Below, piece by piece: positions 6,287 to 57,199 of a stretch of 64,000 nucleotides of DNA; position 1 is the first letter of the stretch, and each line of letters begins with the position of its first letter. The notes below the pieces were generated by a model that did not search any database, was not told the DNA's origin, and was given only the letters and a program-made list of their open reading frames with translations. Location: contig NC_047029.1 of assembly GCF_902652985.1 (NCBI RefSeq), positions 36,952,001 to 37,016,000 of the forward strand. Direction: 5' to 3'. Position numbers and translations under genes: made by a program. Source of the DNA: Pecten maximus (taxonomy: Eukaryota).

Positions 6287-6340
6287 TGACCTTAGATGTT
6301 AATAGGACGTTAAACAAAATAAACCAAACCAAACCAAACC
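6287..6340 (+). mobile_element. 3' fragment of the tRNA-derived SINE family, inserted in Gypsy A pol
   Basis: ...GTTAATAGGACGTTAAAC followed by an (AAACC)n tail, matching the 3' end of the fuller copies; it splits the pol sequence GPDG/LGRT. Confidence 0.75.
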
Positions 6341-6999
6341 AGCCCCATCAGGACCTGTTATAAATCACTGACTTCACTCCTTTGACTGTTTGTGAACCTA
6401 TCAGTAAATTGACGTTTTGTACAAATGGTTCACATATTCGTGAATTAAAAACACAGAAACAACGATACGTTTGATTAATTGAATGAACCACTGGTGCATC
6501 ACGTCAGCGGCGCGGCAGTGTCTGCCAACTCGCTAGCTTTTATGATCAAATCTCCACCATCTATCAAAGACATCGTTCCAAAACTACTTGCATGGTTTTA
6601 TATGTATGTTTCATTGTATTTCTGTTGATACTTTATCGGGAACACGAGCTAATAATTCGGATTTTTAACACAAACAGAAGACCGAGTATTCTAATTTTAG
6701 TAACACAGATCATGATCACATGACCATATCTTATCCAAGATGGCTCTATAAACACACACATGTGAGTACGTCGATTGATACGAATTCACGATTTGGTTTA
6801 TATTTAATTGCGTGATTTTTTAAAATATTTTGAACTTGTAATTCATATCGTTTTTTACATTCTCGTTACAATCATGGAAACGTATTATATCTACCAATAA
6901 AGTAGCGATCTTTGTTGTCATGTAGTTATTTTGCGTGCTGTCAAAATCTGAAAATTTCTACGGCTTCGATTATTTTGAGAGAAGGCTACGACATATTTT

Positions 7000-8330
7000 T
7001 ACATCAAGGGGAAACACAAGGTCCTTGACTTAAGACAAGGAGTCAGTGGATTATCTGGCATTGTTTTTAGATCAGGTATTAATTGATACACTGATAGAGG
7101 AGATCGGAATTATATGCTCAACACTGCAAATTCGAAATTGACACAAGTGACAAATCCGGAATAAAACAAAATTGCAAGCAACCTAGGAAGGGCCGCATTG
7201 AAAGGCTGTTAGTGTTGTTAAATGAAAGCTTTCCTGTGTCTTTGTATGGCATTGAGTGTGGTCATGAACCAGGCTGTCAGTAAAACTTTATGGTAATGAA
7301 TTGACTACTTCATCAGATACAATATTATCAGCTGATTATGGTATTTTTTTCTCCTACATGTACTTGAATTTTTTTAATACCCATTTTTTATTACATTCAT
7401 ACTGAGTTGTACTCATTGTGAATACATGAATCTCAAACTTCATACAACATCCATAAAGGTGCATATGTAATGCTGTCCCAATCACAATTATAGTGCAAAG
7501 ATACAATTTATTAACACTCAAAATGTATCCACTCATAACAAATAAATCCCTATATTATAATGACATTTTCTGGTGTGTTCATAATAAATTAACTGGAGGA
7601 AGATGCCATAATGCAGAATGAACTCTAGCCAGTGTTGTGAAGAAATGTTTACAGGGGACTGGTATTCAGGGTCAAGGCTGGGGACATGTATACCAGGATG
7701 ACTCTTATATTTAACATCACTTTGAATGAGAACACCTATGACTGTTGTACAGTAATTATATATATAAGGTCTATAGTAATTAAGGTCCAACTGCCATGAT
7801 CTACCAAGGGATATCATGCAGAAAAGGCCAGATGATATTGTACAAAAAAGGCCCACTGGTATCTGTTGTATGGAAAGACAAAAAAAATGTGTTACTGCAC
7901 TCTCTACTTTTCATATCGAACCTGCCACAGAGGTATAAACAGACTCACAGATTATTAAACAAGAAGATGACAAGTTTGCCAGGGAAATATATCTTGCCCA
8001 GAACTAATAACAGACTACATTTCCCATATTGGTGGTGTAAACAAGGCAGATCAAAACCTGCAGTATTTAATTAATCATAAAAGCTGAACTCTTATCAGGT
8101 GTTCCTTCAATGTACCAACAACTTTCCTGGACAGGGCAAGCAATAGTTGTCATTCCTGCAGTTTACATAAAGCATCATATGGGGACTGGTTGATAAATTC
8201 ACCTCAAGAAAGGATTGTCTGACCCTACCTGGGACAAGTTTGCATCTCGGTCATGGTATCATGTTTGTTACATGTGTTGCACAAAGAGACAGCAGGATAA
8301 ATCAGTCAATCTTTTTGCTGAACATTTCAT
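7000..8330 (+). mobile_element. Highly decayed piggyBac-like transposase relic, within an insertion of about 2.6 kb (about 6357-8957) in Gypsy A
   Basis: KGQMILYKKGPLVSVVWKDKKNV (about 7822-7892) resembles the piggyBac W.Dk+.V motif; GGV(N)KADQNLQY at about 8031-8068 resembles GGVDxxDQ. TIRs and TTAA not resolved. Confidence 0.55.
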
Positions 8331-9691
8331 TTTTCTGGCAGTATTAATTTGCTTGAACTACTAAGTTGCAAGCAATGAATATCATTTACAGTGTACCTCA
8401 TTATGAAAATTAAAAAATAATGAAAACAAGAAAAACAAATTAAAAGAAAGGAAGAAAAATTGAAGAAAAAAAAACAAAAGAAAAAAAGCCTTACGAAAAT
8501 GCGTTTTTGTAATATTGCATCAAAATATAAAAAAAGATTCATGTATTTGAAAACACAACTTGTTAAAAAAAAATGGAAAAAACCCAAAAATAAACAAAGA
8601 AAAAGGCTGCCCTTTCATGCTTGCAAGTGACTACCCACCCTTGATGCACGCGTTTAACACTTAATTCACTGTGTTGTTCATTGTATTGTTTTCATTTTCT
8701 TTTCCCCTCGTTTATATTAAATGTTAGAAGAGCTCATTCAAACTGTATTTTGCTTCCTAAGTTTTCGTGGCGGTGAGAGTTATCCTTCTTGATGTTGGAA
8801 CCGCGTCGTCAAAATGGCGGCTAACAACCAAAATCGAGAATTTGCTGTTGGTACTGCATGCTACCGCTGACTGTACAGAGCGGTTTCCAAAAACAATATC
8901 CAATAGGTCCTGTCTAGTACATCCTGTAAATGATGAGGTAAACCAGCACGCGGTGTAACACTATCATCCTGAATACCATGTACCTGAGCAACTGGAGAAA
9001 CACAGACTACAACAGTATTACTATGCATATTTATATCCTTGGCAGTAAGGTTTAACAATGACAGAGTTATCTCCCTTTCCCATCCAAGGGGCTATCACTG
9101 TTTTGGCTATAAGTAAGCCCTGGTTGGCCACTTGTTTGTTTGGTTCCATCACACCTATTCTGCTATCCATTTCCACATCAACATACCCCGGGAAGTAACA
9201 CTCAAAATTTCCTGGTATCGAAACAGTTTCTGACACTCTAAAATGGGCACATTTACTTACAGGCTTTGCATTAAGTTCTTCCCTGTGGCCTCCCAACTTC
9301 AGAGTCTTCTCACCAAAATTCATTTCTCCCCCATGAGAGGAAACCAATACCCAAAATACCTTTGAGTTCCTGAAGTTTTACCACGATAGCTTCCTATGTG
9401 AAAGATCTGCTTTCCCAAACACCACTAAATTACTCCCATAGGCTGTTGTTAGCTTAAGACGCCAGCTTTTCAACTCAGGCTTACACCTTTGGTCTAATTT
9501 GCTGTATAAGTCAATATCAATGAGTGTAACTGATGATTCAGAATCCACTAAAAAACTAGTATTCAAACCACCAACACCAACACCAGCGAACAAACTAGGC
9601 TGAATTGTAATTAGCACTTTGACGGGCCCTTCACTCTCAGATTTAAGAGCTGATCCTCTGGCCCCGTGACCAGCTCTGTCCAGTTTTCCTG

Positions 9692-11751
9692 AGCGGGCTG
9701 AAGTAAGCAGCGGATCCGTTATTCGTTATTGGGGATTCGATTAACGAATCCGCTGCTGACAGTGGATTGGGGATTCGAATAACGAATCCGCTACCAGCAG
9801 CGATTTGGGGATTCAGGTTTTTTTTTTTATGTTTGAATGATATTTCTTGTTATTGACATTTTGACGTTTGGATTCAAATAACGAATCCGCTGCAGCAGTG
9901 GATTCGGGATTCAGTTACATATATATTAGTTATTTTTCTTATAATATATGATTGGGGATTTGAATAACGAATTCGCTACCAGCAGCGGATTGGGATTCAT
10001 TATTTTTATGTTTGAATGATATTTCTTGTTATTGACATTTTGACGTTTGGATTCAAATAATGAATCCGCTGCAGCAGTGGATTAAGGATTCAATTACATA
10101 TTAGTAATTTGTCTTATAATATGATACCAGCAGCGGAATGGGGATTTGAAAAACGAATCCGCTGCAGCAGCGAATTGGGGAATCAAATAACGAATCCGCT
10201 GTCAATAACGAATCCGCTGCAGCAGCGGATTGGGGATTCAGTTTCTAATGTGCAATTGTTATTTTTATACCCCCGCAATGAAATGGTGGGAGGTGGGGAT
10301 GGGGGTATAGAGGGGGATATCTAACAGTGTCTTCAGTAATATCAAATATATTTCACGAGTGTGGCTAATATTTTGATATTTTTGAAAAACAGGAGTGAAA
10401 TATAGTTGGTATTACTGAAGATACTGTTAGATATTATGTTTATTACACATTCATAGCAAAATATACCGAGTCAGCTCAATCTCTCCCAGAATTCATTGCG
10501 GTCCCTTGTCAACGGCTCACAAATGTACGCAAAATCGTGACGTTATATATTCTATCTTACATTATAACGTCATATAACTTCAAATCTTTCTTTTCCGCAT
10601 TGTCGTTTGTAAGCAGTGTTCTGATTGGTCAAATCAGAAAAGGTGATATTTTTCACTAGTGAAACATATCAAAAAAGAGATATTTTTCATCAAAATGTCA
10701 CGTTGATAGAATGAATAATTCTCGATACAAACATCCAAGATGGCCGCCACAGCCCATGATTGGCTGAAAATATATCCTTTAATAACGTTTGTTCTATCTG
10801 ATTGATTCTAATGGATCTTGATGGGAAAGATGATACCATGACAGCACTCATTATAAACAATCAAAAACAACAAAATAACGATTCAAGATGGCCGTCAAAT
10901 AGAGATTTCTGATTGGTCGATATTTAAATATCCTTCGATTTTCATGAAATTTGGTATTATATGCAGTCTGGCTATACAAAGACAATGGCAGTATTTATTT
11001 TTGTAAAAAAAAAAATTGGAAGCCATTTTTCTGGCCCCTTATTGGTCAAAATATAAATATAAGTTTCGGGAACTTATTTCATGTGAAGGCGGGGCCATTT
11101 ATGTCTTACAGACATATCTAGTTCTTATAAGATATGATTGTAGATTCGAATAACGAAACCGCTGCCAGCAGCGGATTGGGGATTTGGTTACATACATGTT
11201 CAATTGAAAGAAAAGAAACTCTTGGCAGCAGATTCGAACTAGAATCCCATTATTGTTAATTGAATTACAAAGTAATTATATCATTGAAATACCCGCAAAT
11301 TACCATTTTCGTACTTTGTGAAAAAAATGCGTCAATTATACATCAAGAACTGAATCCATAATATGCTATTGGCAGCAAATTCGTTATTCGAATCACAAAA
11401 TCAAAATGTAAAATCGAATCTCCAATCATAGTTCATCAGAAAAATACCAAAAGTAATTGAATCCCCAATCCGCTGCTGGCAGCTGCAGCGGATTCGTTAT
11501 TCGAATCCCCGGCAGCGGATTCGTTATTCGAATCCCCAATCACATATTATAAGAAAAACACTTATATGTTACTGAATCCCCAATCCACTGCTGCAGCGGA
11601 TTTTTTTATTTGAATCCAAACGTCAAAATGTCAATAAAAAGAAACATAATTTAAACATAAGAATCTGAATCCCCAATCCGCTGTTTGCAGCTGATTCATT
11701 GTTCGAATCTCCAATAACAAATAACGAATCCGCTGCTAACTTCAGCCCGCT
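9692..11751. mobile_element. Non-autonomous foldback/MITE-like element with long modular terminal inverted repeats, inserted at the gag end of Gypsy A
   Basis: The left end AGCGGGCTGAAGTAAGCAGCGGATCCGTTATT is nearly the reverse complement of the right end AATAACGAATCCGCTGCTAACTTCAGCCCGCT; the arms are built of repeated CAGCGGATTGGGGATTCGAATAACGAATCCGCTG units. Confidence 0.75.
10262..11123 (+). mobile_element. Helentron-like (HINE/DINE-type) non-autonomous element nested in the foldback element; itself contains a hairpin-ended insert at about 10321-10720
   Basis: TTTTTATACCCCCGC start; end GCGGGGCC...TATGTC-TTACA-GACATA-TCTAGTT hairpin; internal inverted repeat AACAGTGTCTTCAGTAATA / TATTACTGAAGATACTGTT (10323-10429). 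Confidence 0.5.
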
Positions 11752-13769
11752 ACAAATGTAACAGTGTCTCTGTGAGGAATTGTCAGAACTCTTGGCTCTA
11801 GGATGATTTCTGTGTCTGGAATTCAATTTCCTATTTAACCTTTGAAATTGCTCTAAAATCAGGGATGCTAAAATAGACTCAGACCCACCTTCTGTAGTTT
11901 TGTTAGAGTCGTTGGGAATAGCCTGAACAAAAGCCGGAGCTTCAGGGTTCAATTCCCTTGGCTTCCTAACTGGAGTCTGACCTACATGTCTCGCACTGAA
12001 AGATTCAAATCTAATAGCAGCACTAACTGCTTGATCTAATGTTTTGACATGAAATAATTGTACATGTCAACTAAGTTCAAAATTGTTTAAACCATCTACA
12101 AACTGGTCAACAATATCTCCTTCTAACCTAACAAATCTACCTGTTGGGGCAGGCCTTACGGGCAGCTAATCTCAGGGCTTCGCCGTAAACCGTTAAACTA
12201 TCACCTTCTTTTCTATGTCTACTGTTGAATTCTGACTTGTAAGCAGCTTCTCTACCAGGAGGATCAAACCTATTGGTTAGTACCACTTTTACTTTATCAA
12301 AAGTAAACATTTCTGAGGGCCTCAACTCTGACAAAACCCTTTGTGCTGATCCCCTTAAACACATAGTTATCTGTTGGGTATTTTCAAAGTTTGTCCACCC
12401 ATTCCAATTTGAAATTTGTTCAAAATGTATAAGGAAATCCTGAAAACTTGTTGTCCCATCACACGTTTGAGGATATATTCTTTCCTTTTTATAGAGATGG
12501 AAGAACTAGTTGGAGGTCTAAAACCAGAATGTGGAACATTTACATTACCTAACCCTGCAGGAAATGTAGGGACAGTATTTGTAACATTTGTGCTCATGAC
12601 CTCTCTTGTATTTGAACAAAGTGGTGCTTACAGACAAAGACTGAGATGGAGAATAAGGCATACTAGGTTGATAACCCAACCTTCGTTCCGAAGACATCTC
12701 TAGGGGACCTAAATTATTATCCCCATATTATTGAGAGTCATATGTGTAATATGGGGTACTACACACTGGAGGTCTTAAATTTGTTTGAAATGAAACTTTA
12801 CCAGAAGCTTTGTATTCTGGGGATTCACCATACATAGTATATGAGAACATGGACAAACAATAAATATGACAAGACAAGCCCCTAAGCGGTGGCTACCGGA
12901 TAGCATACAGTCAACAAACACTCACGTTACAGGACAGCACGCATGGCTTCACCTGCAAATACCCTAAATGACATAAGACGAAGACACCCACCTTACGTGC
13001 AGACGAGGTTAGTAGACAGACAGAGACACAGAACAGAGAGTCCGACCAGCTCCAGGAGCATTTTACAGACTGTCGGAACAATAACAATAGGGATAATTTA
13101 CAGCAAGTCCATCCAATGACAGAAGAGATTAGAGTTCAACCAATGAGAGGCGAGGTTACAGATAGAAAGCGAATGTAGAATCAGAATAGTAACAAGAGGT
13201 CCTTTCCGGGAGCAGCCAACATACACAGGTAAACATTATCCTCGTATTTCACACATATAGATTCAATCACACTCCACCACGGCCGGGTCTACATGACATT
13301 CATACCACAACTTCCACACATCTACCTGTACAGCGTTACCTGTTTGAACTAGGATACGATTGAGTGCCTTCACGGCATTCGCTATGTCTGTATAGCCCAA
13401 TGTTTGTACGTGTAAATGACTCATATTGGATTTTTCTCGCCAAAGTTCACTAAAAACTGCTATCAGGTTTCAACATTCAGATCCTTATATACAATACTAC
13501 CTGAATCCTGGAAACATACACTTCGCATTACTGCTGTAAATCGCCTTATTCATCAGAGCTAAAATCTACCGACCTTCCCATAGCAAGGGGCATATCACTC
13601 TTGCGCTTCACTTTTAATATAGGCTGAAAATCAAAATTGTATAGAAACCATATATAGAAGTCTGCTAAAATATAGACTTTTACATTGATATCTATAGACG
13701 GTGGTCAAATATTAACATGTACTAAGTATATACTTATAGATTAATCTCGACTACAAATACATGTAATAT

Positions 13770-14120
13770 CTCAGGTTCATATATTTACAAAAACCGAATT
13801 ATAGACTTGCATACTAATCTTGACTGTAATTATAGCTGAGCTTTATATATTTACATAAACCGAAGTAAAGACTTACAGCTGAGGTTTATATATATATACA
13901 AAAACCGAATTATAGACTAACATACTAATCTTTACTATAAGTAAAAGCTGAGGTTTATATATTTACATAAATCAAAGTAAAGACTTACAGCTGAGGTTCA
14001 TATATATATATACAAAAACCGAATTATAGACTAACATACTAATATTTACTATAAGTAAAAGCTGAGGTTTATATATTTACATAAATCAAAGTATAGACTT
14101 ACAGCTGAGGTCTATATATA
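13770..14120. repeat. AT-rich minisatellite (GCTGAGGTTTATATAT...AAACCGAATTATAGACT units), split by the Gypsy B insertion
   Basis: Several imperfect tandem units; the same repeat resumes at 20392 and, in the duplicate segment, at about 26426. Confidence 0.75.
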
Positions 14121-14146
14121 TGTAGCGGGAATAGGTTTTACTAGTT

Positions 14147-14765
14147 AACAAGAGGCCCAAGGGCCTTGACGGTCATCTGACTCTAAATTAAAGACCCTTA
14201 TACTATTGTATTATGTATTCTCTGTAGCAAGTATATACAATTTAGTGGGACTGTTGGCCATGGTGGCCATCTTGAATTTCTGACCGACCCAATAAATAAC
14301 AACACTTGGTCAGGACCATCTCAGGATAATTTCTGGTAAGTTAGAGCTAAATCCAACTGTTGAAACTTGAGAAGCTGTTTGAAATAGGTGTTTTTCAGGA
14401 AAACTATGATTGCGCAATCATGTTACAATATGGCCGCCGTGGCTGACATGTCACAGTTTTTACGAGGTCGAAAAATAACAACACTTTGTTGGCTCTCCTT
14501 CCTTAACCACATCACCAATTTCCAGCAATGGCACCAGTGGAACAAGAGAAGAAGTTAAAATGTGTTTTTCAAGATGGCTGCCATGCCGGCCATCTTGGAT
14601 TTCTGGCCGACCCGTAAAATAATAACACTTCGTCAGGGCCATCTCAGGATCATTTCTGGTAAGGTAGATCTGAATCCCACAGGTGGAATTTGAGAAGAAC
14701 TTTAAAATAGATGTTGTTCAGAAAAACCCTGATTGCGCAATCATGTTACAAAATGGCCGCCATTG
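14147..14765 (-). mobile_element. Helentron-like non-autonomous element fragment in the 5' LTR of Gypsy B
   Basis: Terminal palindrome AACAAGAGGCCCAAGGGCCT; internal direct repeat of about 325 bp (GGCCATCTTG.ATTTCTG.CCGACCC at about 14263 and 14588). Confidence 0.6.
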
Positions 14766-17700
14766 GGTTTGGCAAGTCCTAATGAATCCTATAGGGACAG
14801 AGTAGACCCTTATGCTGCTATTCTTAATTCTCTAATTTGGCAAAGCGAGCAGCGCCCCCTGTAGGTGAACCGAGGTTGAGTGAACGGTATGTGACCCCGA
14901 ATAGGCACACTCAAACTCCAAATGTAGGGCCAGCTGTAATTTCGAGTACGCCGGTGCCTTCACAGTTTGATGTTCAGATAAGACATTCTAACCCTATTAG
15001 GGTATCATCAAATACAACAGCTACTACATTATATCAGAGTAGACAGAGTTCAGTTACTATACAGGGACCTGGTACATGTACAGGACAGTCTAGATACCCC
15101 AATGTCCCCAGGCAGCCTTGTGCATTCTCTAGTGGTACTTCACAATCACAGGAGGCCATTCAAGAGTGCAGTCATGATAGGTCACAAGGACAGGCAATAC
15201 AATGGCATACCTGTAAAGTTAGTTGGCAGGAACATGAGTCACAGGGGCTAGGTACATCTACATATAATCCTAACAACTAGTTGGCAAGGAAATGACAATC
15301 TGTCACAGGGACAAGCTAGACAAGTAAATCCCCACAGTGTCCCTATGCGAATTCCAATGGATAATTTGTATAATGTAGGTGGGAATTGGCCCATGGAGCG
15401 CAAGGAAAAGAAACCACAGGCATTTGATGGGAAAGTGAATTTTCGGGATTTTATAATACATTTTGAAAGGGTGGATGTATGGAATCATTGGAACAAATAT
15501 GAGCAGGCTCAACAGCTGATCATGTGTTTTTAGGGGGTCAGCCTTAAAAGTTTTGTCAGACTTGACTCTTAGCCAAGCTAGTGACTATAACATTCTGAAA
15601 GATGCGCTGTTAGAAAGTTTTTCTCCATCTGGTAGGGAATTTGCCTATCAGTTTGAATTCAAGAGTGAAGGAGAGGAGACACTGAGTCTTTAGTAGAACT
15701 TGGCTACAGATTAAGAACTCTGTCATCTTTGGCCTTTCCAAAGTCAATAGGGGAGGAGACGGATCATTGTATAGTGAATCAGTTCATTGAAGGTTGAGAC
15801 ACATATGACTTGAAGAAACATGTACAGTTCAGTCACCCTAAAACAATAGACGAGGCAATCAGTAGTGCTATAGAGTTAGAAGCAATTACAAACAAACAAG
15901 TGTTAAGGAAACCTAGATCTATGTCAGAGGAAGCCAGTCAAGTTCATGCTGTAGGGTCTTCAGAAAATGAAATAGTGAACCCAGATATAGGCACTTTACT
16001 GTTACAGAAAATACCGAAACTCAACAAGAACCTGTCTGCCCCTCCCAGGAACTATACTAAACGACCCATTAGTCAGGTTACCATATCAGAGAGGACGTGT
16101 TACGTTTGTGGGGATAAGGGACATTCGTCCTTTACCTTTCCAAAAGTGGGGAGGAAGGTCAAGGTCATGAAAACTTCTAAGGGCTGGGCTTGAGCCAAAA
16201 AGTACAGCCCCAGAATCTGATAGTGTTGATAAGGTTGGGCCAGTGGCCATGTTAAATGAAATACAACCCAGTGTATATCTTGATGCCTCAGTAGCCAATA
16301 CAAACTCAAAATATTTTATAGATTCAGGTTCATCAGTAACCATAGTTTCCATAGAGGTGTATGACCAGATATCAGTGGAGAGTAAACCTGTGTTAGAGAG
16401 AAGTAACTTAAGGTTAACAACAGCTTCTGGTAACAATTTGAAAGTGTATGGTAAATGCATGTGTAATTTCAGGATGGGGAACAGTAATTTTGCACAGGAA
16501 GTGGTAGTGGCAAAGTTTGTGGGATTTCGTGGAATCATAGGTGTAGACTTTTTGACAAAGCATAAAGGTAAGATAAGCTATGCGGATAAAGTCCTCAGGT
16601 AAGGCCAGCATAAATGTAAATTGCAACCTGCAGTAGCCACTGCTAACACTGGTGCTAGGATACGAGTCAGTGTCACAGTCTCCATTCCTGAAAATACAGT
16701 GTTATTTCCCCCGGATGGTGAGGTAGTACATGAAGAGGGTATACTGGAACCTTTCAAGAATTTTGGATGTCAGGGATTGTTGATGGCCAAAACTCTGGTT
16801 CGACCGAGGAAAGGGAAACAAATAACTTTGTCAGTATTGAACTTGCCGTCTCAACCAGTCAAGTTGTTAGAAAACACACACATAGCTACAGTGGGAAATG
16901 TTCATAGGGTTGAAGAGGCAGATGTAGAGAGTGAGTTACCTGGCCATTTAGAACCAATATTGGAAGGGGTGTCAGATCAGTTGGAAGCTGAGGAAAAGTC
17001 AGAGATCAGGCAGTTACTTATAGAGTATCAAGATATTTCCATGGGGCCTGATGGTAAGTTAGGTCGTACACACCTAGGAGAACACTCGATACATGTCAGG
17101 CAGAGCCAATAAAGATACCAGCACGTCGTATTTCCCATAGTCAGAAACAAGTGGTTGAGGATGAGCTTGATAAGATGCTAAAAAGTGGGGTAATTGAACC
17201 CAGTAACAGCCCTTGGTCTGCTCCCGTTGTTTTGATGACCAAGAAATGCGGTGACCAAAAACGCCTTTCCTCTGCCACTTATTGATGACACATTAGACAT
17301 GCTACATGGGGCAAGGTGGTTCTCAACACTAGACCTAGCAAATGGTTACTGGCAGGTGGGCAGGGATGAGAAAGATAAGGCTAAAACATAATTCTCTACT
17401 AATGCTCTACCGATTTACAGTTGTATCGAAAGCTGGAAGAAGCTGTGATCCTGCAAAAAATAGAGCAGTATTTGAATGGCACCCACCTACAAAAATTTTG
17501 TTTAGGCATGGCGGGGTACTACATACGTTTTATCCCCATTTTTTCTACCATCGCAGGGCCACTGTGATACGTTTCCCCCCTGCATCCCTTAAGGGCCAGT
17601 AATAGCGTGCTGGGGAAGCTATGCGGAGACTGGAAGCTCAGCAGGAGCGGAAAAGGCAGGACGAGGAGGCATTATCTAGGAAAGCCAACTTCTCTATACA

Positions 17701-21926: not shown

Positions 21927-23999
21927 ATGCAAGAAGCAGGAGAAAATGAAGACATTATTGTATCTGACGGAGAAGTGTCTCGAAGCTTTCAACCGAGATC
22001 CGATAGTAACGAACGAGAGGAGAAGACTGGCTTTATAGACAGGGAACCCCGTAGATCGTCTGATAGGAAAACTTCCTACATGTCCAGATTAAAAACAGAC
22101 TCCGCCTATAAAGAAAACGTTATTGTTAGTCTGGTTTTATGCTGGACCTTTGTCACCTTGGTACGTCGATAAGTGAAACTTATTTTTAAAGAAATTAAAC
22201 TAAATTGCAAGTTTTTAATGTATGTTGTAACTGATGAACAGAACCTTTAAGAAATAATTGCATTATCATATGTACGTGGAGAAGCATAAATTAGGGTCGA
22301 TTTGAATTGATGTTGGTGTCATTAGGAACAAAACAGAAACTTGAACCTGATACATAATTATCTTGAAATGTTCTTTTTCAGGGGTGGGCGTCTGCACAAT
22401 TTGGACCAGCTTTCCTTGACCTTCAAATTATTACAAGGACAAATGTGAAGAAAGCGTCCGGTTTCTTGACCGTTAGATCCGTTGGGTTCCTGGCAGGTTC
22501 AATCTTGACGGGAATTCTTTTTGACAGATATAGCAAGTTACTTTTGGTGTCAATCTTTCCATTGGCGGGTGCAGTGATATCAGCCGTCCTGCCCTGGTGT
22601 TTCTTGTACGAACTCATGATGGCAGTGCACGTTTGTGCCGGCTTCTACCAAGGAGGAATCGGTGCCAGTAAGTTGGCAGTTAGCCAATTTCGACTATATT
22701 ACTATCTACTGACGCTTCCAGGTTACCTTGGTATCAAATTATTATTTTGTCACTTGACTGCAGCCATATTAGCAACACTCAATTTAACTCTAAAGAATAA
22801 TGCAAATTAGTGTAAATGAAAAAACCCACAGTTTTTATAGATGTATGAATCAATACGTCGGGTTGGGTAATGTTGCCGAAATACTCATAAAAATGTAACA
22901 GTTATTGTTTTTAATTTCATCTAACAGGTGGAAACGCTCTTCTCATGTACACTTGGGGGCGAGAAGGGAACTCCTTCATGCAGGCTTTACACTTCTCCTT
23001 CGCCTTTGGTGGTATCATGTCCCCATTGGCGACTTCACCTTTCTCCTGGACACACATGAGGATTCAATTGACACATTTACCACTGATGTCACACCCGTCG
23101 GTCCGTATAGTGACTACAGCATCAACGTGTCTTACTACACAAACACTACTATTATCAATTCTAGTATCTTTGATAATGCTACTGTTTCACTCACTGACGA
23201 CCAAGATAACTCCAGATTGTATATAGCATACTGTTTAACTGCAGCAATGAACATATCCGCTACGATACCGTTGTTCATTATGTATGTAAGATCACGAAAA
23301 CACCAAAAACTTAATTCAATAAAGAAAACAGGCGTTAAACGGATAACGAGGGAGCATACTTTTGGATTCAAAATTCTAATTCTCGTTTGTCTGTGTCTGT
23401 TTATGGCAGTTTACTGCGCCATGGAGGAAACATTCACTGCATATTTTGCATCGTTCTGCGTTACACAGTTGGCCTGGTCAAAGGTCCAAGGATCCTACGT
23501 CACATCGCTGTACTGGGCTGTCTTCGGGCTCGCTCGCTTCTCGGGAATTTGGGTGGCAAAATATGTTTCCCCTACAAAAATCATTTGTGTGTTAACCATT
23601 GTTCTGTGTGTTGATTTAGGAGTGTTGTATGTTTCTTCAAGTTTCTCGATTGATGGAGGTATCTGGGCATGCGCAGTTTTCACGGGAGCATCAATGTCCC
23701 TAATCTATCCATCCTTGATCTTGTTGACAGAAGAAAAACTACTTCCGGTTTCGGGCAAAGTAATGTCCCTCTTTATTATGGCATCGTCAGGTGGTACAAT
23801 AGCCAACCCAATCATTTTAGGATACTTAATGGAAACCTTCACACCTATGTGGTTCACATACCTGTTGTTTGGGGAGAGCGTAGTGTTGATTATTCTATTT
23901 CTCATCCTCTTACTGATAGCGAGGCTGTCGGAATCTAGATTTAGTGTCAGTAAATCGTGTGGCATTGTCAAAGAGGAAACAGCGAACGAACATGTTTAA
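21927..23999 (+). pseudogene. MFSD4/sodium-dependent glucose transporter 1-like MFS gene, copy A (exons 21927-22160, 22382-22667, 22928-23999); 1-bp frameshift at about 23043
   Basis: GT-AG boundaries; motifs FGPAFLDLQ, GILFDR, GNALLMYTWG...FMQALHFSFAFGG and many hydrophobic TM segments; exon 3 is one base shorter than in copy B (TTCTCCTGG vs TTCCTCCTGG), which could be a consensus error. Confidence 0.85.
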
Positions 24000-30960: not shown

Positions 30961-32583
30961 ATGCAAGAAGCAGAAGAAAATGAAGACATTATTGTATCTG
31001 ACGGAGAAGTGTCTCGAAGCTTTCAACCGAGATCCGATAGTAACGAACGAGAGGAGAAGACTGGCTTTATAGACAGTGAACCCCGTAAATCGTCTGATAG
31101 GAAAACTTCCTACATGTCCAGATTAAAAACAGACTCCGCCTATAAAGAAAACGTTATTGTTAGTCTGGTTTTATGCTGGACCTTTGTCACCTTGGTACGT
31201 CGATAAGTGAAACTTATTTTTAATGTACAAAAAAAATGTATGTTGTAACTGAACCTTTAAGAAATAATTGCATTATCATATGTACGTGGAGAAGCATTAA
31301 TTAGGGTCGATTTGAATTGATGTTGGTTTCATTAGGAACAAAAGAGAAACTAACAAAACTTTAACCTGATACATAAATAACTTCTTTTTTTTTTGCAGGG
31401 GTGGGCGTCTGCACAATTTGGACCAGCTTTCCTCGACCTTCAACTTATTACAAGGACAAATGTGAAGAAAGCGTGCGGTAATAGTTATTGATTCTAATCT
31501 TATCTCACAGGTGGAAACGCTCTTCTCATGTACACTTGGGGGCGAGAAGGGAACTCCTTCATGCAGGCTTTACACTTCTCCTTCGCCATTGGTGGTATCG
31601 TGTCTCCGTTGGCGACTTCACCTTTCCTCCTGGACACACCTGAGGATTCAAATTACACATTTACCACTGATGACACGCACATCTCTCCGTATAGTGACTA
31701 CAATATCAACGTGTCTTACTATACAAACACTACTATTATCAATTCTAGTATTTTTGATAATGCTTCTTTTTCACTCACCAACGACCTAGATAAATCCAGA
31801 TTGTATATAGCGTACTGCATAACTGCAGCAATGAACATATCTTGTACGATACCGTTGTTTATTATGTATTTAAGATCACTTAAACAACAAAGACTTAATT
31901 CAAAAAAGAAAACAGCCGTTAATCGGATAACGAGGGAGCATACTTTTGGATTTAAAATTCTAATTCTCGTTTGTCTGTGTCAGTTTATGGCAGTGTACTG
32001 TGCCATGGAGGAAACATTCACTGCATATTTTGCATCGTTCTGCGTAACACAGTTGGCCTGGTCAAAGGTCCAAGGATCCTACGCCACATCGCTGTACTGG
32101 GCTGTCTTCGGGCTCGCCCGCTTCTCGGGAATTTGGGTGGTAAAATATGTTTCCCCCACAAAAATAATTTGTGTGTTAACCATTGTTCTGTGTGTTGATT
32201 TAGGAGTGTTGTATGTTTCTTCAAGTTTCTCGATTGATGGAGGTATCTGGGCATGCGCAGTTTTCACGGGAGCATCAATGTCCCTAATCTATCCATCCCT
32301 GATCTTGTTGACAGAAGACAAACTACTTCCGGTTTCGGGCAAAATAATGTCCCTCTTTATTATGGCATCGTCAGGTGGTACTATAGCTAACCCAATCATT
32401 TTAGGATACTTAATGGAAACCTTCACACCTATGTGGTTCACATACCTGTTGTTTGGGGAGAGCGTAGTGTTGATTATTCTATTCCTCGTCCTAGTACTGA
32501 TAGCGAGGCTGTCGGAATCTAGATTTAATGTCAGTAAATCGCGTGGCATTGTCAAAGAGGAAACAGCGAACGAACATGTTTAA
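30961..32583 (+). pseudogene. MFSD4/NaGLT1-like MFS gene, copy B (exons 30961-31194, 31399-31477 truncated, 31511-32583); deletion of about 435 bp covering the exon 2 3' part and most of intron 2
   Basis: Alignment by eye to copy A: the sequence jumps from AAAGCGT.CGGT to GTAA.AGTTATTG; exon 3 reading frame intact. Confidence 0.85.
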
Positions 32584-36964: not shown

Positions 36965-39900
36965 TTACATTGTGGCCTCTTCAGCAGGTTCTTTACAGGT
37001 GCGCGCTTGTCGCCTGACGAGAAGCAGCATGATGATATATACAGCTATTGCTGCAACGCTGTCCCCGAAAAGAAGATATGCAAACCACATAGGCGTAAAG
37101 TTTTCCATAAGATAACCCAACAATATTGGGTTGATCATTGCGCCACAGGAAGCAGATATCAAAAAGAGAGATGCTACTTTCCCGCTCATTGTGATAAAAC
37201 TTTCATTTGTCCATGTGAATACGGTGGGAAAAATTATTGACATTGCAGCTCCAGCACTCACTGCGCATGCCCATATTCCAGCATCAATTTTTAAATATGA
37301 AAACACTACAAACGCTAAAAAAACAAACCCTAACGATGTTGTAAATACTCCAATCAAAACTACCGGCTTTAACATTTTTATCAGCCAAATTCCTAGAAAC
37401 CGACCTGTTCCGAATGTTGCCCAAAATAGCGACGTGGCAAAAGATCCCTGGACTTTTGTCCACGTCATTTGTTCGATACAAAACGTGACAAGGAGGTAAT
37501 TAAATGTATTTTCCAAAGCTGCGTTCAGTGCTAGAAACAAGCAAATTGTACAAAATTCAACAATTTTCCTGCTGCTGTCCACTTTCTGATGAACTTGGGA
37601 AATAGTTCCATCAGCTTTGCTTTCTTTTGTACAGCTATGTTGTTTCTTTGCGCGAATGTATAATAAAAACAGAGGGACTGCGCATGACAGATGTAATGCT
37701 GACGTGATGAGAAAATCCACGTACAATTTAGACTGTCCAGGTCTGTCACTATATGGTGCTGTCGAAAATGACGTAAAATTGTTGGCCCATTTTTCAGAAC
37801 GATGACTTGATATACCTGTAAACACTTGAGAATCAGATATATTAACCTCGGGTGTTAATGAAAGTGAATGATTCACATTTGCATCATTATCCATTTTCGA
37901 AAGGAATGGGACTATCACCATCGGAGATACTATACCACCAATTGCAAAGGCAAAGTGTATGGCCTGCATGAAGGAGCGTCCATCTCCCTCCCATGTCCAC
38001 ACCAAGAGAGCATTCCCACCTAGACAAAGAACCAAGCTGGAGTCAGGAGTGTGACCTAATGGCTTTATACAGGTGTATTGGCAAATGTTAATGTGTTGGT
38101 AGAACAATTTTGATTGGCTTAACTTTCACTCTTGGTGTCTTAATTTCATACTGATATAAATAATGTATGATGATTAGTTTAGCTAAATACAACCTGAACA
38201 GTATAATTTATAAGATCTTGTTCTTGTCGATATCTTTTTCAACATTCATCCCCATTTCTCTTCTCTTTATTCTATATCACACTGGATATCCTTTTTACAG
38301 GAAGGCGATATAAAATGAAAAAAGTACATCTGATCGTCAAAGTGTGTGTGTATGTATGTGTGTGTATATTAAATAAGTATATCGTTTTGTTTATTTACTT
38401 GTATGTTCGTGTATATTAATTTGAACCCTCTTCTTCCTACAAATATTATGTCAAATTAACATTTTGGCCAACCAACATTAGATAGCCGGCTGTTAAAGCC
38501 GCCCGTCGTCCGCGGTCTGTCCGCCCGTCTGTAAACGATCCTTGTTTTGTCTATTTCTAGAGAAATGTCTTAGGGGTTTTTCTCAATTTCCATAGGTATG
38601 TTTCCTTAGGTTCATTTTAGTGCATGATTAAATTTGAGATTGACAAATATACAAAGTTAATTTCTTTTGGATTGTGTATGTTGGTTACCCTTTGTCTCTT
38701 ACGGTACAAATTCCATATATATATGTTCCGCTTGGTTTAAAGCGATTTAGAGAAAAAGAGGAATGAAGAGGAAATTTGAGAAAATGCCAGTCTTGCATAG
38801 ACCCAATAGATTCAATGCTGGACTTCCAATATTTCTCGGGGCCTATTGTATGTTTATGTAGAAAAGATTCGTGAATTGATACGGCAATAAATCTCCTTCG
38901 TCTAGTGTGCTTCATTATCACGTAGAAAAATATCCAATCATGTGTATATTATTGAGTTCTTTGTATAATAATCACACAATTTTCGTGCCACGTCCTTCCG
39001 TTCCAAGAAAAAGACACCTATTTGGTTTTTTCCATGATTTGTTACTTGATGTTTCAACTAAATGAATAATAATTAATTAATGTTTCATGATAAGTAGTTT
39101 TTATAGATAAGGTTGATGATTGATGAGTTTTAGACCGCAGACGCTGTGCCATAGGATAAACTTACAAATATGCATCATATGACTAAAATGTATAATCACT
39201 TCCAACTATCACAGTGTAAAACGTTTCTGATTAACATTATAGATTTCTCATACGTTTACTTTACCCTACTATTTTCAGAGAAATACAAGGTTACCAGCAT
39301 CGAGTCCTCCACCGAACATCCCACGACAGAACTGTACCACGATCATCAGTTCATACCGGTAACACCAAGGGATGATGATAAAGTTGACAAAACCACAGAC
39401 GGTGAAGGAACACACAAGTAGGTGTTTGTTTAACCGATCAAACAGTATCCCGCTCAGGAGGGAACCAACCATGTACCCTGTAGCTCCGGCTGTTAGGAAC
39501 GCCGACGCTTTTTCTAAGGGCGATCCGGTGATGATTTGGAGTTCAGGAAGAGCCGGACCAAACTGACCTACCACCCAACCCTGCACAAAGAACAACAGGT
39601 TTATGGAGCAATGTAACATTAGCTAAATTATTTAGAACTTGAAGAGACCAAACCCAAAAAACAAAAGCAAATTAGATAACACAAACACTAGAGGATTCAG
39701 TATATCAATGAAGTTGATACATGGTTGTATATACAATGGACATTCACGGTATTAATTAGCATGTTTCAATACAAATTTGATGTTAAATAGAAAAGATAAA
39801 AAAAAATGATAAAAACATGACTATACTGCTGTTTTGTCCTTTTATGAATCGTTATTGAAACTGAAAGCCGAAATTGATGATACATAGAAGGAGATAATTG

Positions 39901-40357
39901 AATTGAGTTCCAAAATGTTTAAATATTCATACGGATGTACAAGAGCTCCAAGATTATACAAATGTCATAATTTTCAAAGTTCAGAAGGAAGACAGTTTGT
40001 ACTGTTATAATGGATATTTACCAATACAAAAAAGGACCTGTTATGATGGATATTTACCAATACAAAAAAGGTCCAGCAGATAGTAAGACTGAGAAAAACA
40101 TTTTCTCTATAAACAGCGTCGTGTTTTATTCTCTGTATAACTCCTGATCTTTCGCCGTGTGTGTCGTCCACTGTTTCGTCCACAGGGAATTCCGAGATAT
40201 CGCTACCTTCATTCAATGGGATAACTTCTTCTTTGTCATCCTCTGTGTCTTTTGAAATGGGTGTTTGTGTAACTTCCTCGGAGACAGATTTGTCCCCTTC
40301 GCCAGTATGAAGTGACTCAAAGCAAAGCTCACTCGGTGATTCTAGCACGGGGTCCAT
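36965..40357 (-). CDS. Intact MFSD4/sodium-dependent glucose transporter 1-like MFS transporter, 546 aa (exons 40357-40058, 39580-39295, 38019-36965)
   Basis: Exon lengths 300+286+1055 = 1641 nt, in frame; same 286-bp middle exon and splice phases as copy A; motifs QFGPALPELQ, GILFDRLN, GGNALLVWTW...FMQAIHFAFAIGG. Confidence 0.9.
38461..38650 (+). mobile_element. Intronic Helentron-like fragment
   Basis: GCCCGTCGTCCGCGGTCTGTCCGCCCGTCTGTAAAC microsatellite-like head, similar to the 17860 family. Confidence 0.4.
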
Positions 40358-52700: not shown

Positions 52701-53759
52701 TCATATCGACTTCCTGGGGCCGTTACCAAGAACAGAAAATGGGAACGAGAACATTTTGATGATGGTGGACCAGTTTACGAAATGGGTGGAAATTGTTCCT
52801 ACATCCTCTCAGACAGCTGAAGTCACAGCCAAAGCGGCGGTAAACTCTTTCTTCTCAAGGTTTGGGATGCCATTCCAGTTGTTTTCTGACCAAGGACGAA
52901 ATTTCGAAAGTGATCTTTTTACTGCCATATGCGATATTCTGCGCATCCATAAGGCCCGAACCACTCCATATCGACCATCCTCCAACGGACAAGTCGAACG
53001 TTACAATCGGACTCTGATGGACGCAGTCAGGTGTTTCGTTGGTAACCGACAAAAAGACTGGGACGTCTTACTTCCTCAGCTTGCGGGAGCAATGAGATCG
53101 ACAGTAAACCGGAGCACGGGCAGACACCAAATATGATGATGTTGGGCAGGGAGGTTAATCTCCCAGCAGATCTTATGTTCGAGTCCTGTAATACTCCCCT
53201 TCAACAGGGGGTTGCACCCTATATTCATCGATTAATAGGCGCTTTGCAGGAAGCTCATCATATAGCTAGACAGAAATTGAAGGAGACACAGCGCCGGATG
53301 AAGAGGAACTATGACCTCAGGGTATTGAAGCGGTCTTATCAGAAAGGAGATATTGTCTACATCCTGGATAGTGGGGCAACTAAAGGCAGATCCAAGAAGT
53401 TGTGCCCTCCCTGGAAAGGGCCCGGTATAATTGTGGAAAAGATCACACCATACTTGTTTGGGTTCAGCTTAACAACAAGGTCTTGGTCTTAAACCACGAT
53501 AAGCTCAAGCCTTGCAGGGACCGCCAAATGCCTGCATGGATAAACAAGTTCACATCCAATCTTCTGGTGGGTAACGAGGCAGAGGGTGAAGTTGATACGG
53601 AGGCAGATGATGAGGCTTATTGTATTTGTAGAAAGCCATGGAATGGTCAATTTATGATACAGTGCGACTACTGCGGGGAATGGTACCATGGGTCATGCCC
53701 TGGATATTGACCGGTTCAAGTGTTCTTCTTGTAAGAACAATGTGGTCACTCAAGCATAG
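49705..53759 (+). CDS. pol: Pol polyprotein (aspartic protease, RT, RNase H, integrase, GPY/F, PHD finger); 3' end broken by frameshifts at about 53120 and 53460 and a deletion at about 53697
   Basis: IVDTAA; [19 protein letters not shown]; LDTDAS, TDHNSL; HHCC (H...GH...CEVC); [22 protein letters not shown]; WKGPG; YCICRK...[12 protein letters not shown]...FKCSSC. Confidence 0.93.
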
Positions 53760-53783
53760 TTTCTCTCTTTCTGTTCTTCACAG
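53760..53783 (+). promoter_or_regulatory. Putative splice acceptor for an ORF3 subgenomic mRNA
   Basis: Polypyrimidine tract TTTCTCTCTTTCTGTTCTT followed by CACAG|G, 8 nt upstream of the ORF3 ATG (context GGCATGG). Confidence 0.65.
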
Positions 53784-53791
53784 GTGAAGGC

Positions 53792-56410
53792 ATGGCGTAC
53801 GGAGGCAGATGGACTGAGGTGATGTCTAAACACCTCAAGACAGTAGAGGATGCCACCCGAAAAGGTGACACCCTGGACGCTCGAGATGTCATGAGCCACC
53901 TGTATAGGACCAACATCTCCGATCGTAGGATGAAGGAAGCGGTAATGGGGCAGGTCAAGATCGCCATCAAGAAAGGCAGGCGGGGTTGGCTAAGGCGCAT
54001 GGCAGAGGAGGCTCGCAGCGCTGGATTGTTTACAGACGACTGGATTGAAGGTAACATCTTCAAATTACAGGGTCGCCGTCATCGTCGTGACAATCGCCGA
54101 GAATCCATCGCGGAGCAGGCGGTGTTCGAGCTTGTGAGGGACTATCGGCTTCAACAGGACCCGACACTCCCAAAATATGTTGAAGAGGTTAGCGCTCAAG
54201 ATGGCCCGACTAGGTTGGATCAGCGCTCCTACAGAGATGCCTTAATGGACTGCCCTAGAGAAGAGAAGAGATCGTCTCCGGAAAAGTATTCGTCGGGCGT
54301 GTCCAATCATTCGGGAGGGGACTACCAGGAGGAGTTGGCCGGCGAATCTTCAAGGGAGGACCTTTATGTTGACAATCAGTCAACCGGTGAGGGTCAGGAT
54401 TCCCAGTTACGGGGAGGAAGCTCGGAAGGCAAGGATTCCCGGTTCTCGGGAAACACAGATACGCAACGTGTCGTTGTATTAATGCCTGCAGAGAGGGACA
54501 TGACGGATCAGGGCAAGTCGCAGAGGGGTAGCCCCCGTTATCAGCGACAGTCTAGCTCTCGGCTAAGGGGCTCGGATTCGAGCAGGGGGAGGAGTATGGC
54601 ACGTTTCTCACAAAAACGGAGACCCTCCCCGAGGAGTTATCAACGGAACAAAGGAACCTATTCCACAAGAGAGGCAAGGTCTCCGACCCCACGTATACAG
54701 AGTACGAGGGGAGCCGGACCAAAGGTTCATTCAGTCCGGGTACGGACAGATCATCAGCATAGTTCGGGGGTTGGACAAGTACCAGTACGAACTAGGGAAA
54801 TATGGAATTCGTCTTATTCCCGTAAGAAGGAGTCTTCCAAGCCGGAAGAACAGCCCACTCCAACAAGGCACCGGAAACGGAAAGCTAAGTTGCAAGGTCA
54901 GGAGGGTCAGCCACCTGAGAAGAAGTCTCACAGAGGTCATCGGAAGGGGGAGATTTGCAAGATAGGCGGTTGTGGCAAGGAAACTTGGTATCCCAAGCGT
55001 CATCTAGTCGAGGCTCACCTCCCCAATGTCTTAGAAGAGCGTCATCCGTTGACAGTGGACCTACACCGGACCCGATATTCGTGTCTGGCCATGTTTGCTG
55101 TATGCACTGTGGGGCCAACAGCAGGGCTGCAAGACCTCTGTGATTGGATCAACCGATACAGGTTCATTGAGCCAGGTTGGAAGATCACCGATAGACAGAG
55201 GGAGTTGATGGTAGGACTGTGTGAGGAGCAAGGCTGGGAAGTTCCACAGGATTTCAGCTTGTCCCCAATAAACTCTCCCGCTGCACTCCTGCATTGGAGG
55301 TGCCTGAAAGCTATTGCCAATCAGATAGCTAGGGGGACGATGAAAGAGCTGAGGGAAAGGTTCACCTTTACCTCTGAACAGGTTCTTGTGGAGCCGGAAG
55401 CTGAGGTCCAGGATACGGCTGGTGTCGACGTGAAGGATCCGATAGAGGCCATGGAGACGTCATCAGGACTTCGGGTATCCATCGGTAGATCGGCAGAGGA
55501 CCCGGGGTTAGAGCATGCTGGGGATTCGTTGGAGGACATATCAGTACCAGAGTCCAAGCGAATGGAGGAGTCCAAACCGGTGATGAGCGCTTTCGATAGC
55601 CATTTCCATCTGGATAGGATACGAAGGTACCTGAAGCTTCACCATGATGCGTCAGTGCATGATGTACTAGCAGCGGTGCCAACAACACCAGGGGAGTACC
55701 AGCTAGAAGTCTCGGGAGGTGTCGCGGTATACTGCGACCCCGAAACCTACCCATCAGTCGACGAAATATCTCGATTAGTGGAGGAAGGCTTTAAGGCGGT
55801 GATTGGAGTCCATCCTAAGCACTGCATTTCCAAGGTTGACAAACAACGCCTGGTGGACTTGCTGGTGGTACCTGGAGTGGCTGGACTCGGTGAGGTCGGT
55901 CTCGATCACACCTGTCGGCCTGATACTTGGTATCCTCAGGAGCAGCTACTCAAGAATCTCCTGTCCTATCTGTGTCCAGGCATGGTACTGGTGCTGCACA
56001 TCAGGGGAATGAAGAGGGATGCTGCAGGAGTGGAGGCCTTCATGCGCTGCCTGGATATCCTGCAATTGCAGGGAGTATCATCACGCCAGAAGATTCAACT
56101 CCACTGTTTCTCCGGTACAGCGAGAGTAGTGGAAAGTTGGTTGGAAGTCTATCCAAACACCTACTTTAGTGTGTCGGGCCTGGTGTTTCACTTCAATGAT
56201 GCCCAGAGAAAGGCTGTCAAGTCAATTCCCCTAGATCGGCTCCTTTTAGAGACAGATGCCCCTTACTTTCCGGTAAGTGCGGAAAGTTCGTGCAGTGCCC
56301 CCCACTTAATTGATATCACAGCCAGGAAAGTGGCAGAGATACGGGGAGGCATTACCGTCAGAGAGGTCCTTGGAGCCACAGAGGAGAACGCCCGGACCTT
56401 CTTCTGTTAA
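53792..56410 (+). CDS. ORF3: 872-aa protein with an R/S-rich low-complexity region, a C2H2-like motif and a C-terminal TatD-family nuclease domain (about 55592-56407)
   Basis: TatD motifs in order: FDSHFHLD, GVHP, GLGEVGLD, LVLHIR, LHCFSG, DRLLLETDAPY, closing TEENARTFF; CKIGGC-x9-HLVEAH at 54956-55018. Confidence 0.92.
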   Translation: MAYGGRWTEVMSKHLKTVEDATRKGDTLDARDVMSHLYRTNISDRRMKEAVMGQVKIAIKKGRRGWLRRMAEEARSAGLFTDDWIEGNIFKLQGRRHRRDNRRESIAEQAVFELVRDYRLQQDPTLPKYVEEVSAQDGPTRLDQRSYRDALMDCPREEKRSSPEKYSSGVSNHSGGDYQEELAGESSREDLYVDNQSTGEGQDSQLRGGSSEGKDSRFSGNTDTQRVVVLMPAERDMTDQGKSQRGSPRYQRQSSSRLRGSDSSRGRSMARFSQKRRPSPRSYQRNKGTYSTREARSPTPRIQSTRGAGPKVHSVRVRTDHQHSSGVGQVPVRTREIWNSSYSRKKESSKPEEQPTPTRHRKRKAKLQGQEGQPPEKKSHRGHRKGEICKIGGCGKETWYPKRHLVEAHLPNVLEERHPLTVDLHRTRYSCLAMFAVCTVGPTAGLQDLCDWINRYRFIEPGWKITDRQRELMVGLCEEQGWEVPQDFSLSPINSPAALLHWRCLKAIANQIARGTMKELRERFTFTSEQVLVEPEAEVQDTAGVDVKDPIEAMETSSGLRVSIGRSAEDPGLEHAGDSLEDISVPESKRMEESKPVMSAFDSHFHLDRIRRYLKLHHDASVHDVLAAVPTTPGEYQLEVSGGVAVYCDPETYPSVDEISRLVEEGFKAVIGVHPKHCISKVDKQRLVDLLVVPGVAGLGEVGLDHTCRPDTWYPQEQLLKNLLSYLCPGMVLVLHIRGMKRDAAGVEAFMRCLDILQLQGVSSRQKIQLHCFSGTARVVESWLEVYPNTYFSVSGLVFHFNDAQRKAVKSIPLDRLLLETDAPYFPVSAESSCSAPHLIDITARKVAEIRGGITVREVLGATEENARTFFC

Positions 56411-56504
56411 GCTTGAGTGTGGACCGGTAGCAGGGCCCCCATCTTGATTAGGCCATGCCGGTGTGAGGGTTAGTGCCCGTTCGGAGATGGCTATGGACTT
56501 TCCC

Positions 56505-56524
56505 AAAAAGAAAACGGGGGGGAA
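56505..56524 (+). promoter_or_regulatory. Polypurine tract of Gypsy C
   Basis: AAAAAGAAAACGGGGGGGAA immediately before the 3' LTR. Confidence 0.85.
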
Positions 56525-56809
56525 TGTAGTGAAAACGGACTCAAGCGCGCCGGTGACACGGGTCAGCGTGCGCGAGCGGCTCACGTGCGCACTTAGAAAA
56601 AAGAGACTAGAAATTAGACAACGCAATCTACACCACGAGGTAAATTCGTAAACAGAAAAGCTTATCTAGCAAGACACCCCGGTAAAACGGTGCATACGTC
56701 GCTGGAACCCCCCTACCCACGGTTAACCCCGGTATAGGAAGTAGGGAACTGACCACCTGTAACAAGGTAAACGGTAAGCTGTCCTCGTGAACCACGCGTT
56801 GAAACTTCA
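56525..56809 (+). repeat. 3' LTR of Gypsy C
   Basis: Matches 46903-47187 with 3 substitutions. Confidence 0.97.
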
Positions 56810-57199
56810 ATTGTATATATCATCCAATCGTGTTTTCATTAACATCAAAACTGCGTTCATAATGGCTTTGAGAGTAAATGTTTGAATACCATATGAAAAA
56901 AAGCTGTGAAATTGTTAAAACAATTATAATTCAAAATATTTGTCGAGAGGAGATGATTTAAATCCTCAAAAACCATGTGACTTATAGCCCTCATTACTGC
57001 TCCGATGGAATACAAAATATATTAATCCTCAATTAAAATACATTAAGCAGTGCGAAAGTTATAACCCATCGGCTACAATAAAGAATCATATCGGGACACG
57101 CCCATTGATACGTCCTTCGCCACCATGGTACCTTGCTAATTATTTCCCTTATCTCAACAAAAATTGTAAAAATGTCGTAAAGCTATGTGGTATTCCATC

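Follow-up and report, generated by a model that had tools for sequence, protein, structure and literature searches.

A TatD nuclease gene retained under purifying selection as the third gene of Gypsy retrotransposons in a scallop genome

In errantiviruses and retroviruses, env is the third gene, lying between pol and the 3' LTR with a splice acceptor just before its start. Identifiable enzymes are rare among the non-envelope third genes of LTR retrotransposons. According to the accessible text of the relevant paper, the Juno and Vesta LTR retrotransposons of bdelloid rotifers encode a DEDDy 3'-5' exonuclease as ORF3 (PMC5408684), a case that comes without evidence of selection. The CopiaMBD lineage has captured and kept a host nuclear domain, and PHD fingers occur in many retrotransposons (PMC6673714, accessible text). 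As for the nucleases themselves, the available portions of three further papers describe human TATDN2 as degrading the RNA of R-loops and cutting RNA hairpins, with a disordered N-terminus that is required for binding, little activity on DNA and very weak AP activity (PMC10711561), medaka tatdn2 as acting in germ cells and protecting primordial germ cells (PMC12709183), and other HxH-class TatD proteins as DNA 3' exonucleases and AP endonucleases (PMC10085689).

Here we examined a window of 64,000 nt from the genome of the scallop Pecten maximus, which holds a complete LTR element of 9,907 nt (46903-56809) with a TatD gene in the third position. Features of the element are on the plus strand. 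The near-identical LTRs and perfect target-site duplication reported in a preliminary description of the sequence were confirmed: the 5' LTR (46903..47187; 285 nt, TG...CA) and the 3' LTR (56525..56809) agree at 282/285 positions, sequence comparison places ATTG on both flanks (46899..46902 and 56810..56813), and a polypurine tract (56505..56524) precedes the 3' LTR. The primer-binding site (47189..47199) is complementary to the 3' end plus CCA of tRNA-Ser(GCT), as matched against the tRNA-Ser(GCT) genes of the same genome. Pfam matches outline a gag gene (47957..49618) with an N-terminal helix-hairpin-helix (HHH_3, E 1e-4), a capsid (Retrotrans_gag, E 0.003; both scores under the cut-off) and a CCHC knuckle (zf-CCHC, E 1e-6), followed by pol (49558..53759) with protease, RT, RNase H and integrase domains in Gypsy order and a C-terminal PHD finger. 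Within the gag-pol overlap, TTTAAAC (49570..49576) is presumably a slippery site at which a -1 frameshift is likely; the heptamer recurs in two related families described below (B and E), and TTTAAAT is found in a third (D). Assignment to Ty3/Gypsy rests on the paired TG...CA LTRs with their target-site duplication, the order protease-RT-RNase H-integrase, and the tRNA primer site with polypurine tract, all of which are present. The pol of this copy is not open, being spread over three frames (49558-53136, 53046-53492 and 53384-53710) with breaks near 53.1 kb, near 53.45 kb and within the PHD finger.

Four-base target-site duplications in this genome are AT-rich (ATTG here; ATAA twice, TCAT, ATAT and GTAT twice at L032, L033, L036, L037, L047 and L048), which hints at a weak target preference. 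Elsewhere in the window we observed degenerate Gypsy-like sequences of gag, protease and integrase, lying on both strands (3695-17112), a tandem array (44184-45854; 49-nt period) situated some 1 kb upstream of the element, and three paralogous MFS-type transporter genes (22367-23999, 31498-32583 (+) and 36965-40357 (-)), two of them in a tandem duplication of about 9 kb.

The claim that an unbroken 872-codon frame ending in a TatD domain lies between pol and the polypurine tract and 3' LTR also stood. ORF3 (53792..56410) translates into 872 aa without stops, and PF01026 matches aa 601-871 over positions 1-252 of its 253 (E 7.5e-35; 121 bits against a cut-off of 27), a full-length match. The TatD nuclease domain (55592..56404) is of the HxH class, with H604, H606, E701, H736, H771, E820 and D822 and a TATDN2-type Y-C-D-P motif; the N-terminal HxH and the catalytic E, H, H, E and D place it in TatD class II as defined in the accessible text of PMC10085689. 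Intactness of the metal and catalytic motifs extends beyond this copy, since in an alignment of 46 ORF3s of about 33% identity D, H, H, H, E and D are present in 46/46 rows and the first H and central E in 45/46 (one gap). An AlphaFold model of aa 380-872, the last 493 aa, has a mean pLDDT of 88.4 and consists of a C-terminal TatD barrel preceded by a distinct, confidently modelled helical domain. Foldseek matched this model to TatD-family structures or uncharacterised metal hydrolases in each of the first 16 rows listed (ranks 1-17; best E 2e-13), and a sequence search of solved structures returned YcfH as the best of 12 hits (E 4.5e-17), among which there was no TATDN2 chain. No DEDDy exonuclease domain was found in ORF3 by Pfam or Foldseek. 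A role for TatD as a substitute RNase H was rejected, since pol has its own RNase H domain.

Upstream of the barrel are two further conserved domains. Our own profile defines an N-terminal domain (53819..54175) that ends in an RD-x-RL-xxx-P motif; it is followed by a basic low-complexity linker that is rich in Ser, Arg and Pro and has short basic clusters (54182..54946; linker pI 9.3-11.4 in five families) and by a middle domain, recognized by profile and AlphaFold model, that combines a zinc-finger-like C-x4-C-x9-H-x4-H motif with a helical bundle (54953..55381). The N-terminal profile matched 60 stored sequences at E<0.001, including its 27-row training set, was undetected in family F and gave no usable match in the Atlas search. 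The middle-domain profile matched 526 clusters (50% identity) at E<=0.001, with TatD downstream in 72 of the 75 top hits long enough to hold it. This domain has no Pfam family, found no match in a profile search of solved structures and nothing above the bar in the Atlas, and with VIA reached a best Z of 3.8 from a weak model (pLDDT 60), where several HEPN entries among the top rows were far below significance. Neither domain falls in a known family. Three proteins (P0254, P0307 and P0312) have the middle domain without TatD, P0254 being a gene model from Mytilus with EF-hands as well, and domestication or fused models are possible explanations. Hydropathy over 19 residues peaks at 1.4-1.8 in five families, so that ORF3 has no transmembrane-like segment, and with TatD as its only Pfam match it is not recognizable as an env-type membrane glycoprotein. 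The preliminary description had overlooked both extra domains, as well as the pol PHD finger, the gag helix-hairpin-helix and the splice acceptor considered below.

A search of the same genome returned 105 TatD matches. In the 10-kb stretches examined for 40 of these, mostly the best-ranked, pol pieces lay upstream on the same strand at 32; two of the remaining eight loci have assembly gaps and one begins at a contig end. The full pol domain set was present at four of seven further intronless TatD loci. At least six Gypsy families (A, that of the window, and B-F), each with LTR pairs, share the layout gag-pol-ORF3(TatD)-PPT-LTR, the other families being 60-69% identical to the window element in RT and 29-40% in TatD. 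The PHD finger accompanies TatD in families A-E and is missing from family F. All six families have a helix-hairpin-helix gag, with an N-terminus like that of the window gag in B-F; the helix-hairpin-helix also occurs in relatives L175 and L176, which lack TatD. Loss of ORF3 from sister copies had been proposed as the sign of a one-off passenger; ORF3 is present in all 13 family-A copies examined, where gag is open in nine, pol in six and ORF3 in seven. At 20 RT loci picked for the absence of a nearby TatD match no TatD was found; the closest of these are cut-off copies of TatD families and the rest are two-gene elements or elements with other third genes. Among the relatives are complete two-gene elements that lack TatD, some of them with LTRs that are nearly identical, and TatD is therefore dispensable in the wider group. 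The third ORFs of other Gypsy families (L185:6484-7533, L183:5856-6635 and L181:5808-6446) start with C2H2-type zinc fingers and lack TatD, and that of L185 has no Pfam match.

An RT-RNase H tree of families of this genome only joined families A-E in one clade (100/99) and placed F among TatD-less families. This topology requires two changes for TatD, and a single origin was not rejected (p-AU 0.165). Within A-E the pairs (B,E) and (C,D) are recovered with TatD as well as with RT, as expected from co-descent.

Ratios of dN/dS near 1 had likewise been named as a refuting sign, and the outcome depends on the depth of comparison. Between lineages the TatD values are mostly 0.04-0.33, well under 1, with 0.22 for B/B2 (p 4e-7), 0.17 for E61/E63 (p 3e-10), 0.22 for C48/C50 (p 1e-4), 0.04-0.06 for C/D and further values of 0.16 and 0.33; five family-F pairs gave 0.08-0.44. 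The N-terminal and middle domains have ratios of 0.12-0.22 where measurable (0.12 for the N-terminal domain in one pair). Weaker pairs occur in C (0.49, 0.56 and 0.90), D (0.68) and B/J66 (p 0.15); pair B/L056 was left out for a frameshift and saturated pairs yield no ratio. Copies of the young family A give a ratio of about 1, and all nine variable TatD codons are non-synonymous (p 0.13). Such values in family A and in close C and D pairs are the pattern expected of post-insertion decay and are not support for selection. Between families synonymous sites are saturated, yet frames and catalytic residues persist. The TatD ORF3 is kept under purifying selection and is not a one-off passenger.

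The named sources of ORF3 homologues are scallop, oysters, pearl oyster, clams, zebra mussel, Lingula and three sea urchins, and one protein of 99% identity is assigned by NCBI to Pecten maximus. Outside the scallop genome, apparent linkage to pol comes from P0210, P0267 and P0340, gene models in which ORF3 is fused to pieces of protease or integrase; P0210 is near-identical to a Lingula protein. A metagenome scan returned 80 loci, nearly all with prokaryote-type TatD and one of element type on a 2.7-kb contig, and a viral scan gave four loci with weak matches.

Comparison of TatD domains points to animal TATDN2 among the groups compared. The C and P of the [FY]-C-x-P motif are present in 55/67 and 65/67 element rows and in 39/39 TATDN2 rows, as against 2/30 and 3/30 prokaryote-type rows. 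The equivalent of C538 is found in 55/67 element rows and that of C656 in 58/67; the latter is not diagnostic because it is also present in 27/30 prokaryote-type rows. In a tree of 58 rows chosen from 309 domains, with TATDN1 and TATDN3 left out (only scattered exons were found), the element TatDs formed one clade (100/99), with a long stem branch (0.61), sister to animal TATDN2, and elements plus TATDN2 and one metagenome row were separated from 13 bacterial-type rows at 100/99. Of the phylogeny called for in the preliminary description, the tree covers bacterial TatD and, among the host proteins, TATDN2. Nesting of element TatDs within bivalve TATDN2 was not rejected (p-AU 0.21). Host TATDN2 has five exons across the domain and the element gene is intronless, which fits capture of a message. 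On these sequence comparisons, TatD was likely acquired in the distant past from the message of a host TATDN2 gene. P0085 has the element's middle domain and a TatD that nests inside host TATDN2, possibly reflecting a second capture or a slow-evolving lineage. Two other TATDN2-like proteins (P0142 and P0144) have several N-terminal CCHC knuckles, and at L078:8460-8990 the end of a host TATDN2 exon with the ETD motif is repeated about ten times in tandem in the next intron.

ORF3 is also predicted to be expressed in the manner of an env gene. A pyrimidine tract plus CAG ends 2-8 nt before the ORF3 ATG in all six families (in the window element 53760..53783, 8 nt upstream); by a threshold, and a choice of the second ATG in families E and F, that were set after inspection, such predicted acceptors precede 35 of the 1005 ATGs of these elements, a count that includes the six ORF3 starts, and one of six gag starts. 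Candidate GTRAG donors lie within the 5' LTRs of all four families scanned (the window family plus B, C and D), and the candidate in the window element, GTAAGC (47152..47157), close to the LTR end, is one of two such sites in the LTR and leader. The donor-to-acceptor joint was not seen in contigs of four runs compared with the window element or of four compared with a family-C copy, runs whose RNA status was mostly guessed. Run contigs matched the elements in short pieces, some within ORF3, and gaps in their coverage carry no evidential weight. ORF3 is likely to be translated from its own env-style spliced RNA, to judge from these predicted sites.

An element-encoded accessory nuclease was the proposal of the preliminary description, and this part holds, given selection, six families and a conserved active site; the DNA-directed jobs attached to it (cDNA clearance, proofreading and AP processing) reflect TatD proteins at large and appear disfavoured by TATDN2 kinship. 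Because TATDN2, RNA-acting in humans, is the closest group among those tested, we favour an RNA-directed role over DNase ideas, and because ORF3 has a basic low-complexity region before the barrel, on a TATDN2-like plan, a nuclear role on RNA or R-loops is ranked first. Our preferred reading, tentative and close to an even call, is that the window holds a young Gypsy copy with a stable TatD ORF3, likely captured from a TATDN2 message and likely expressed from a spliced RNA, whose product is predicted to cut R-loop or hairpin RNA for the benefit of the element. A donor close to the end of the 5' LTR would be joined to the acceptor before ORF3, so that the protein would be made apart from Gag-Pol; lacking a transmembrane-like segment and bearing basic clusters, it would be intracellular and probably nuclear rather than an envelope. 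By analogy with the human enzyme TATDN2, RNA-DNA structures may be bound by the basic linker together with the zinc-finger domain, and the barrel may remove the RNA strand, which would keep element transcription or insertion from stalling or from harming germ-cell DNA. Against this explanation, the substrate is that of a single human enzyme, which is separated from ORF3 by a long branch and shares roughly 30% identity with it. GC skew, taken as an indicator of R-loop load, gave no signal, the pol of TatD families being not more G-skewed (six families against nine without TatD, p 0.41).

The strongest of the other readings, which we consider unlikely, makes ORF3 a DNA 3'-5' exonuclease or AP endonuclease engaged in trimming cDNA ends or, together with the PHD-tailed integrase, in cleaning the gapped integration intermediate. 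TATDN3, also of the HxH class, and E. coli YcfH and YjjV have such activities (PMC10085689, accessible text), YcfH is the best solved-structure match, and the PHD finger in families A-E and the helix-hairpin-helix gag in all six would fit; against it, family F is PHD-less and L175 and L176 are TatD-less, the closest group is reported to have little DNA activity (PMC10711561, accessible text), and a separate spliced message would not automatically put the protein in the particle. Alternatively, ORF3 may be a counter-defence RNase that blunts piRNA or siRNA silencing by attacking dsRNA, small-RNA precursors or guide-bound nascent RNA. Cutting of hairpin RNA by TATDN2 (PMC10711561, accessible text), a stand-alone protein able to act in trans, the long element stem branch and the extra element-specific domains would fit this role, and silencing was raised in connection with the bdelloid DEDDy ORF3s (PMC5408684, accessible text); purifying selection on the TatD domain speaks against it, and we regard it as improbable. 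The suggestion in the preliminary description of a TREX1-like activity that clears cytosolic cDNA, and so avoids cGAS-like/STING sensing, has in its favour the frequency of single-strand DNA exonucleases among TatD enzymes (PMC10085689, accessible text); it seems to us very improbable, as kinship with TATDN2 and the basic clusters suggest action on RNA and in the nucleus, and a free DNase would presumably threaten the element's own cDNA too. A neutral passenger or annotation artefact, for which the family-A ratios and the relatives without an ORF3 TatD might speak, is scarcely credible, being largely refuted by between-lineage ratios far under 1 in all three domains, by frames and active sites that outlast synonymous saturation, and by an ORF3, broken in some copies, in every family-A copy examined.

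Extending the preferred RNA-directed reading, an ancient Gypsy lineage of bivalves, brachiopods and sea urchins may have acquired TATDN2, the R-loop nuclease of the germ line, before these phyla diverged, assembled a three-domain protein around it and given it env-like expression to clear RNA obstacles or silencing, a history that we offer as possible, if rather doubtful. If true, a host genome-stability enzyme has been turned into a transposon accessory or counter-defence factor. With an intact, selected and widespread nuclease one can ask directly whether retrotransposons in germ cells are limited by R-loops, cDNA end processing or small-RNA silencing, and there are in addition hundreds of natural TATDN2-like variants to draw on, as well as two new protein domains. 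Many of the TatD genes annotated as 'uncharacterized' in bivalves, brachiopods and sea urchins probably belong to transposons, and counts of gene families would be inflated as a result.

The TatD ORF3 is a real, selected and apparently undescribed module. In literature listings, a scope outside which lie Repbase, Dfam, GyDB, supplements and most subscription journals, no published description of TatD in an LTR element was found, and the accessible text of the main mollusc LTR survey mentions no ORF, PHD or DNase (PMC6238403). The preliminary description did not know of TatD as a recognised LTR-element module, and these listings agree with it; a nuclease in the ORF3 slot has precedent in Juno and Vesta. 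Like the present element, these are Gypsy-like and have an enzymatic, non-envelope ORF3 after pol, with intact nuclease residues and a function that is predicted in both cases; their fold is RNase D-like DEDDy rather than a TatD barrel, and their ORF3s reportedly show no clear departure from neutrality within the genome, in contrast to the clear selection seen here (PMC5408684, accessible text). The TatD elements further stand apart by having two additional domains and by occurring in three phyla. CopiaMBD is alike in host domain capture by an LTR lineage, but is a Copia element with a binding domain, whereas ours is a Gypsy element with an enzyme (PMC6673714, accessible text). With env, ORF3 shares the third-gene slot before the 3' LTR and a predicted acceptor just upstream of its start, and differs in having no transmembrane-like segment and a sole Pfam match to TatD. 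Finally, host TATDN2, as far as its available descriptions go, has the same C-terminal HxH-class TatD behind a long low-complexity region, with the catalytic residues and [FY]-C-x-P motif, whereas the element gene is intronless, mobile and fast-evolving and adds N-terminal and zinc-finger middle domains, the latter absent from 119 of 120 hits of the TATDN2 search.
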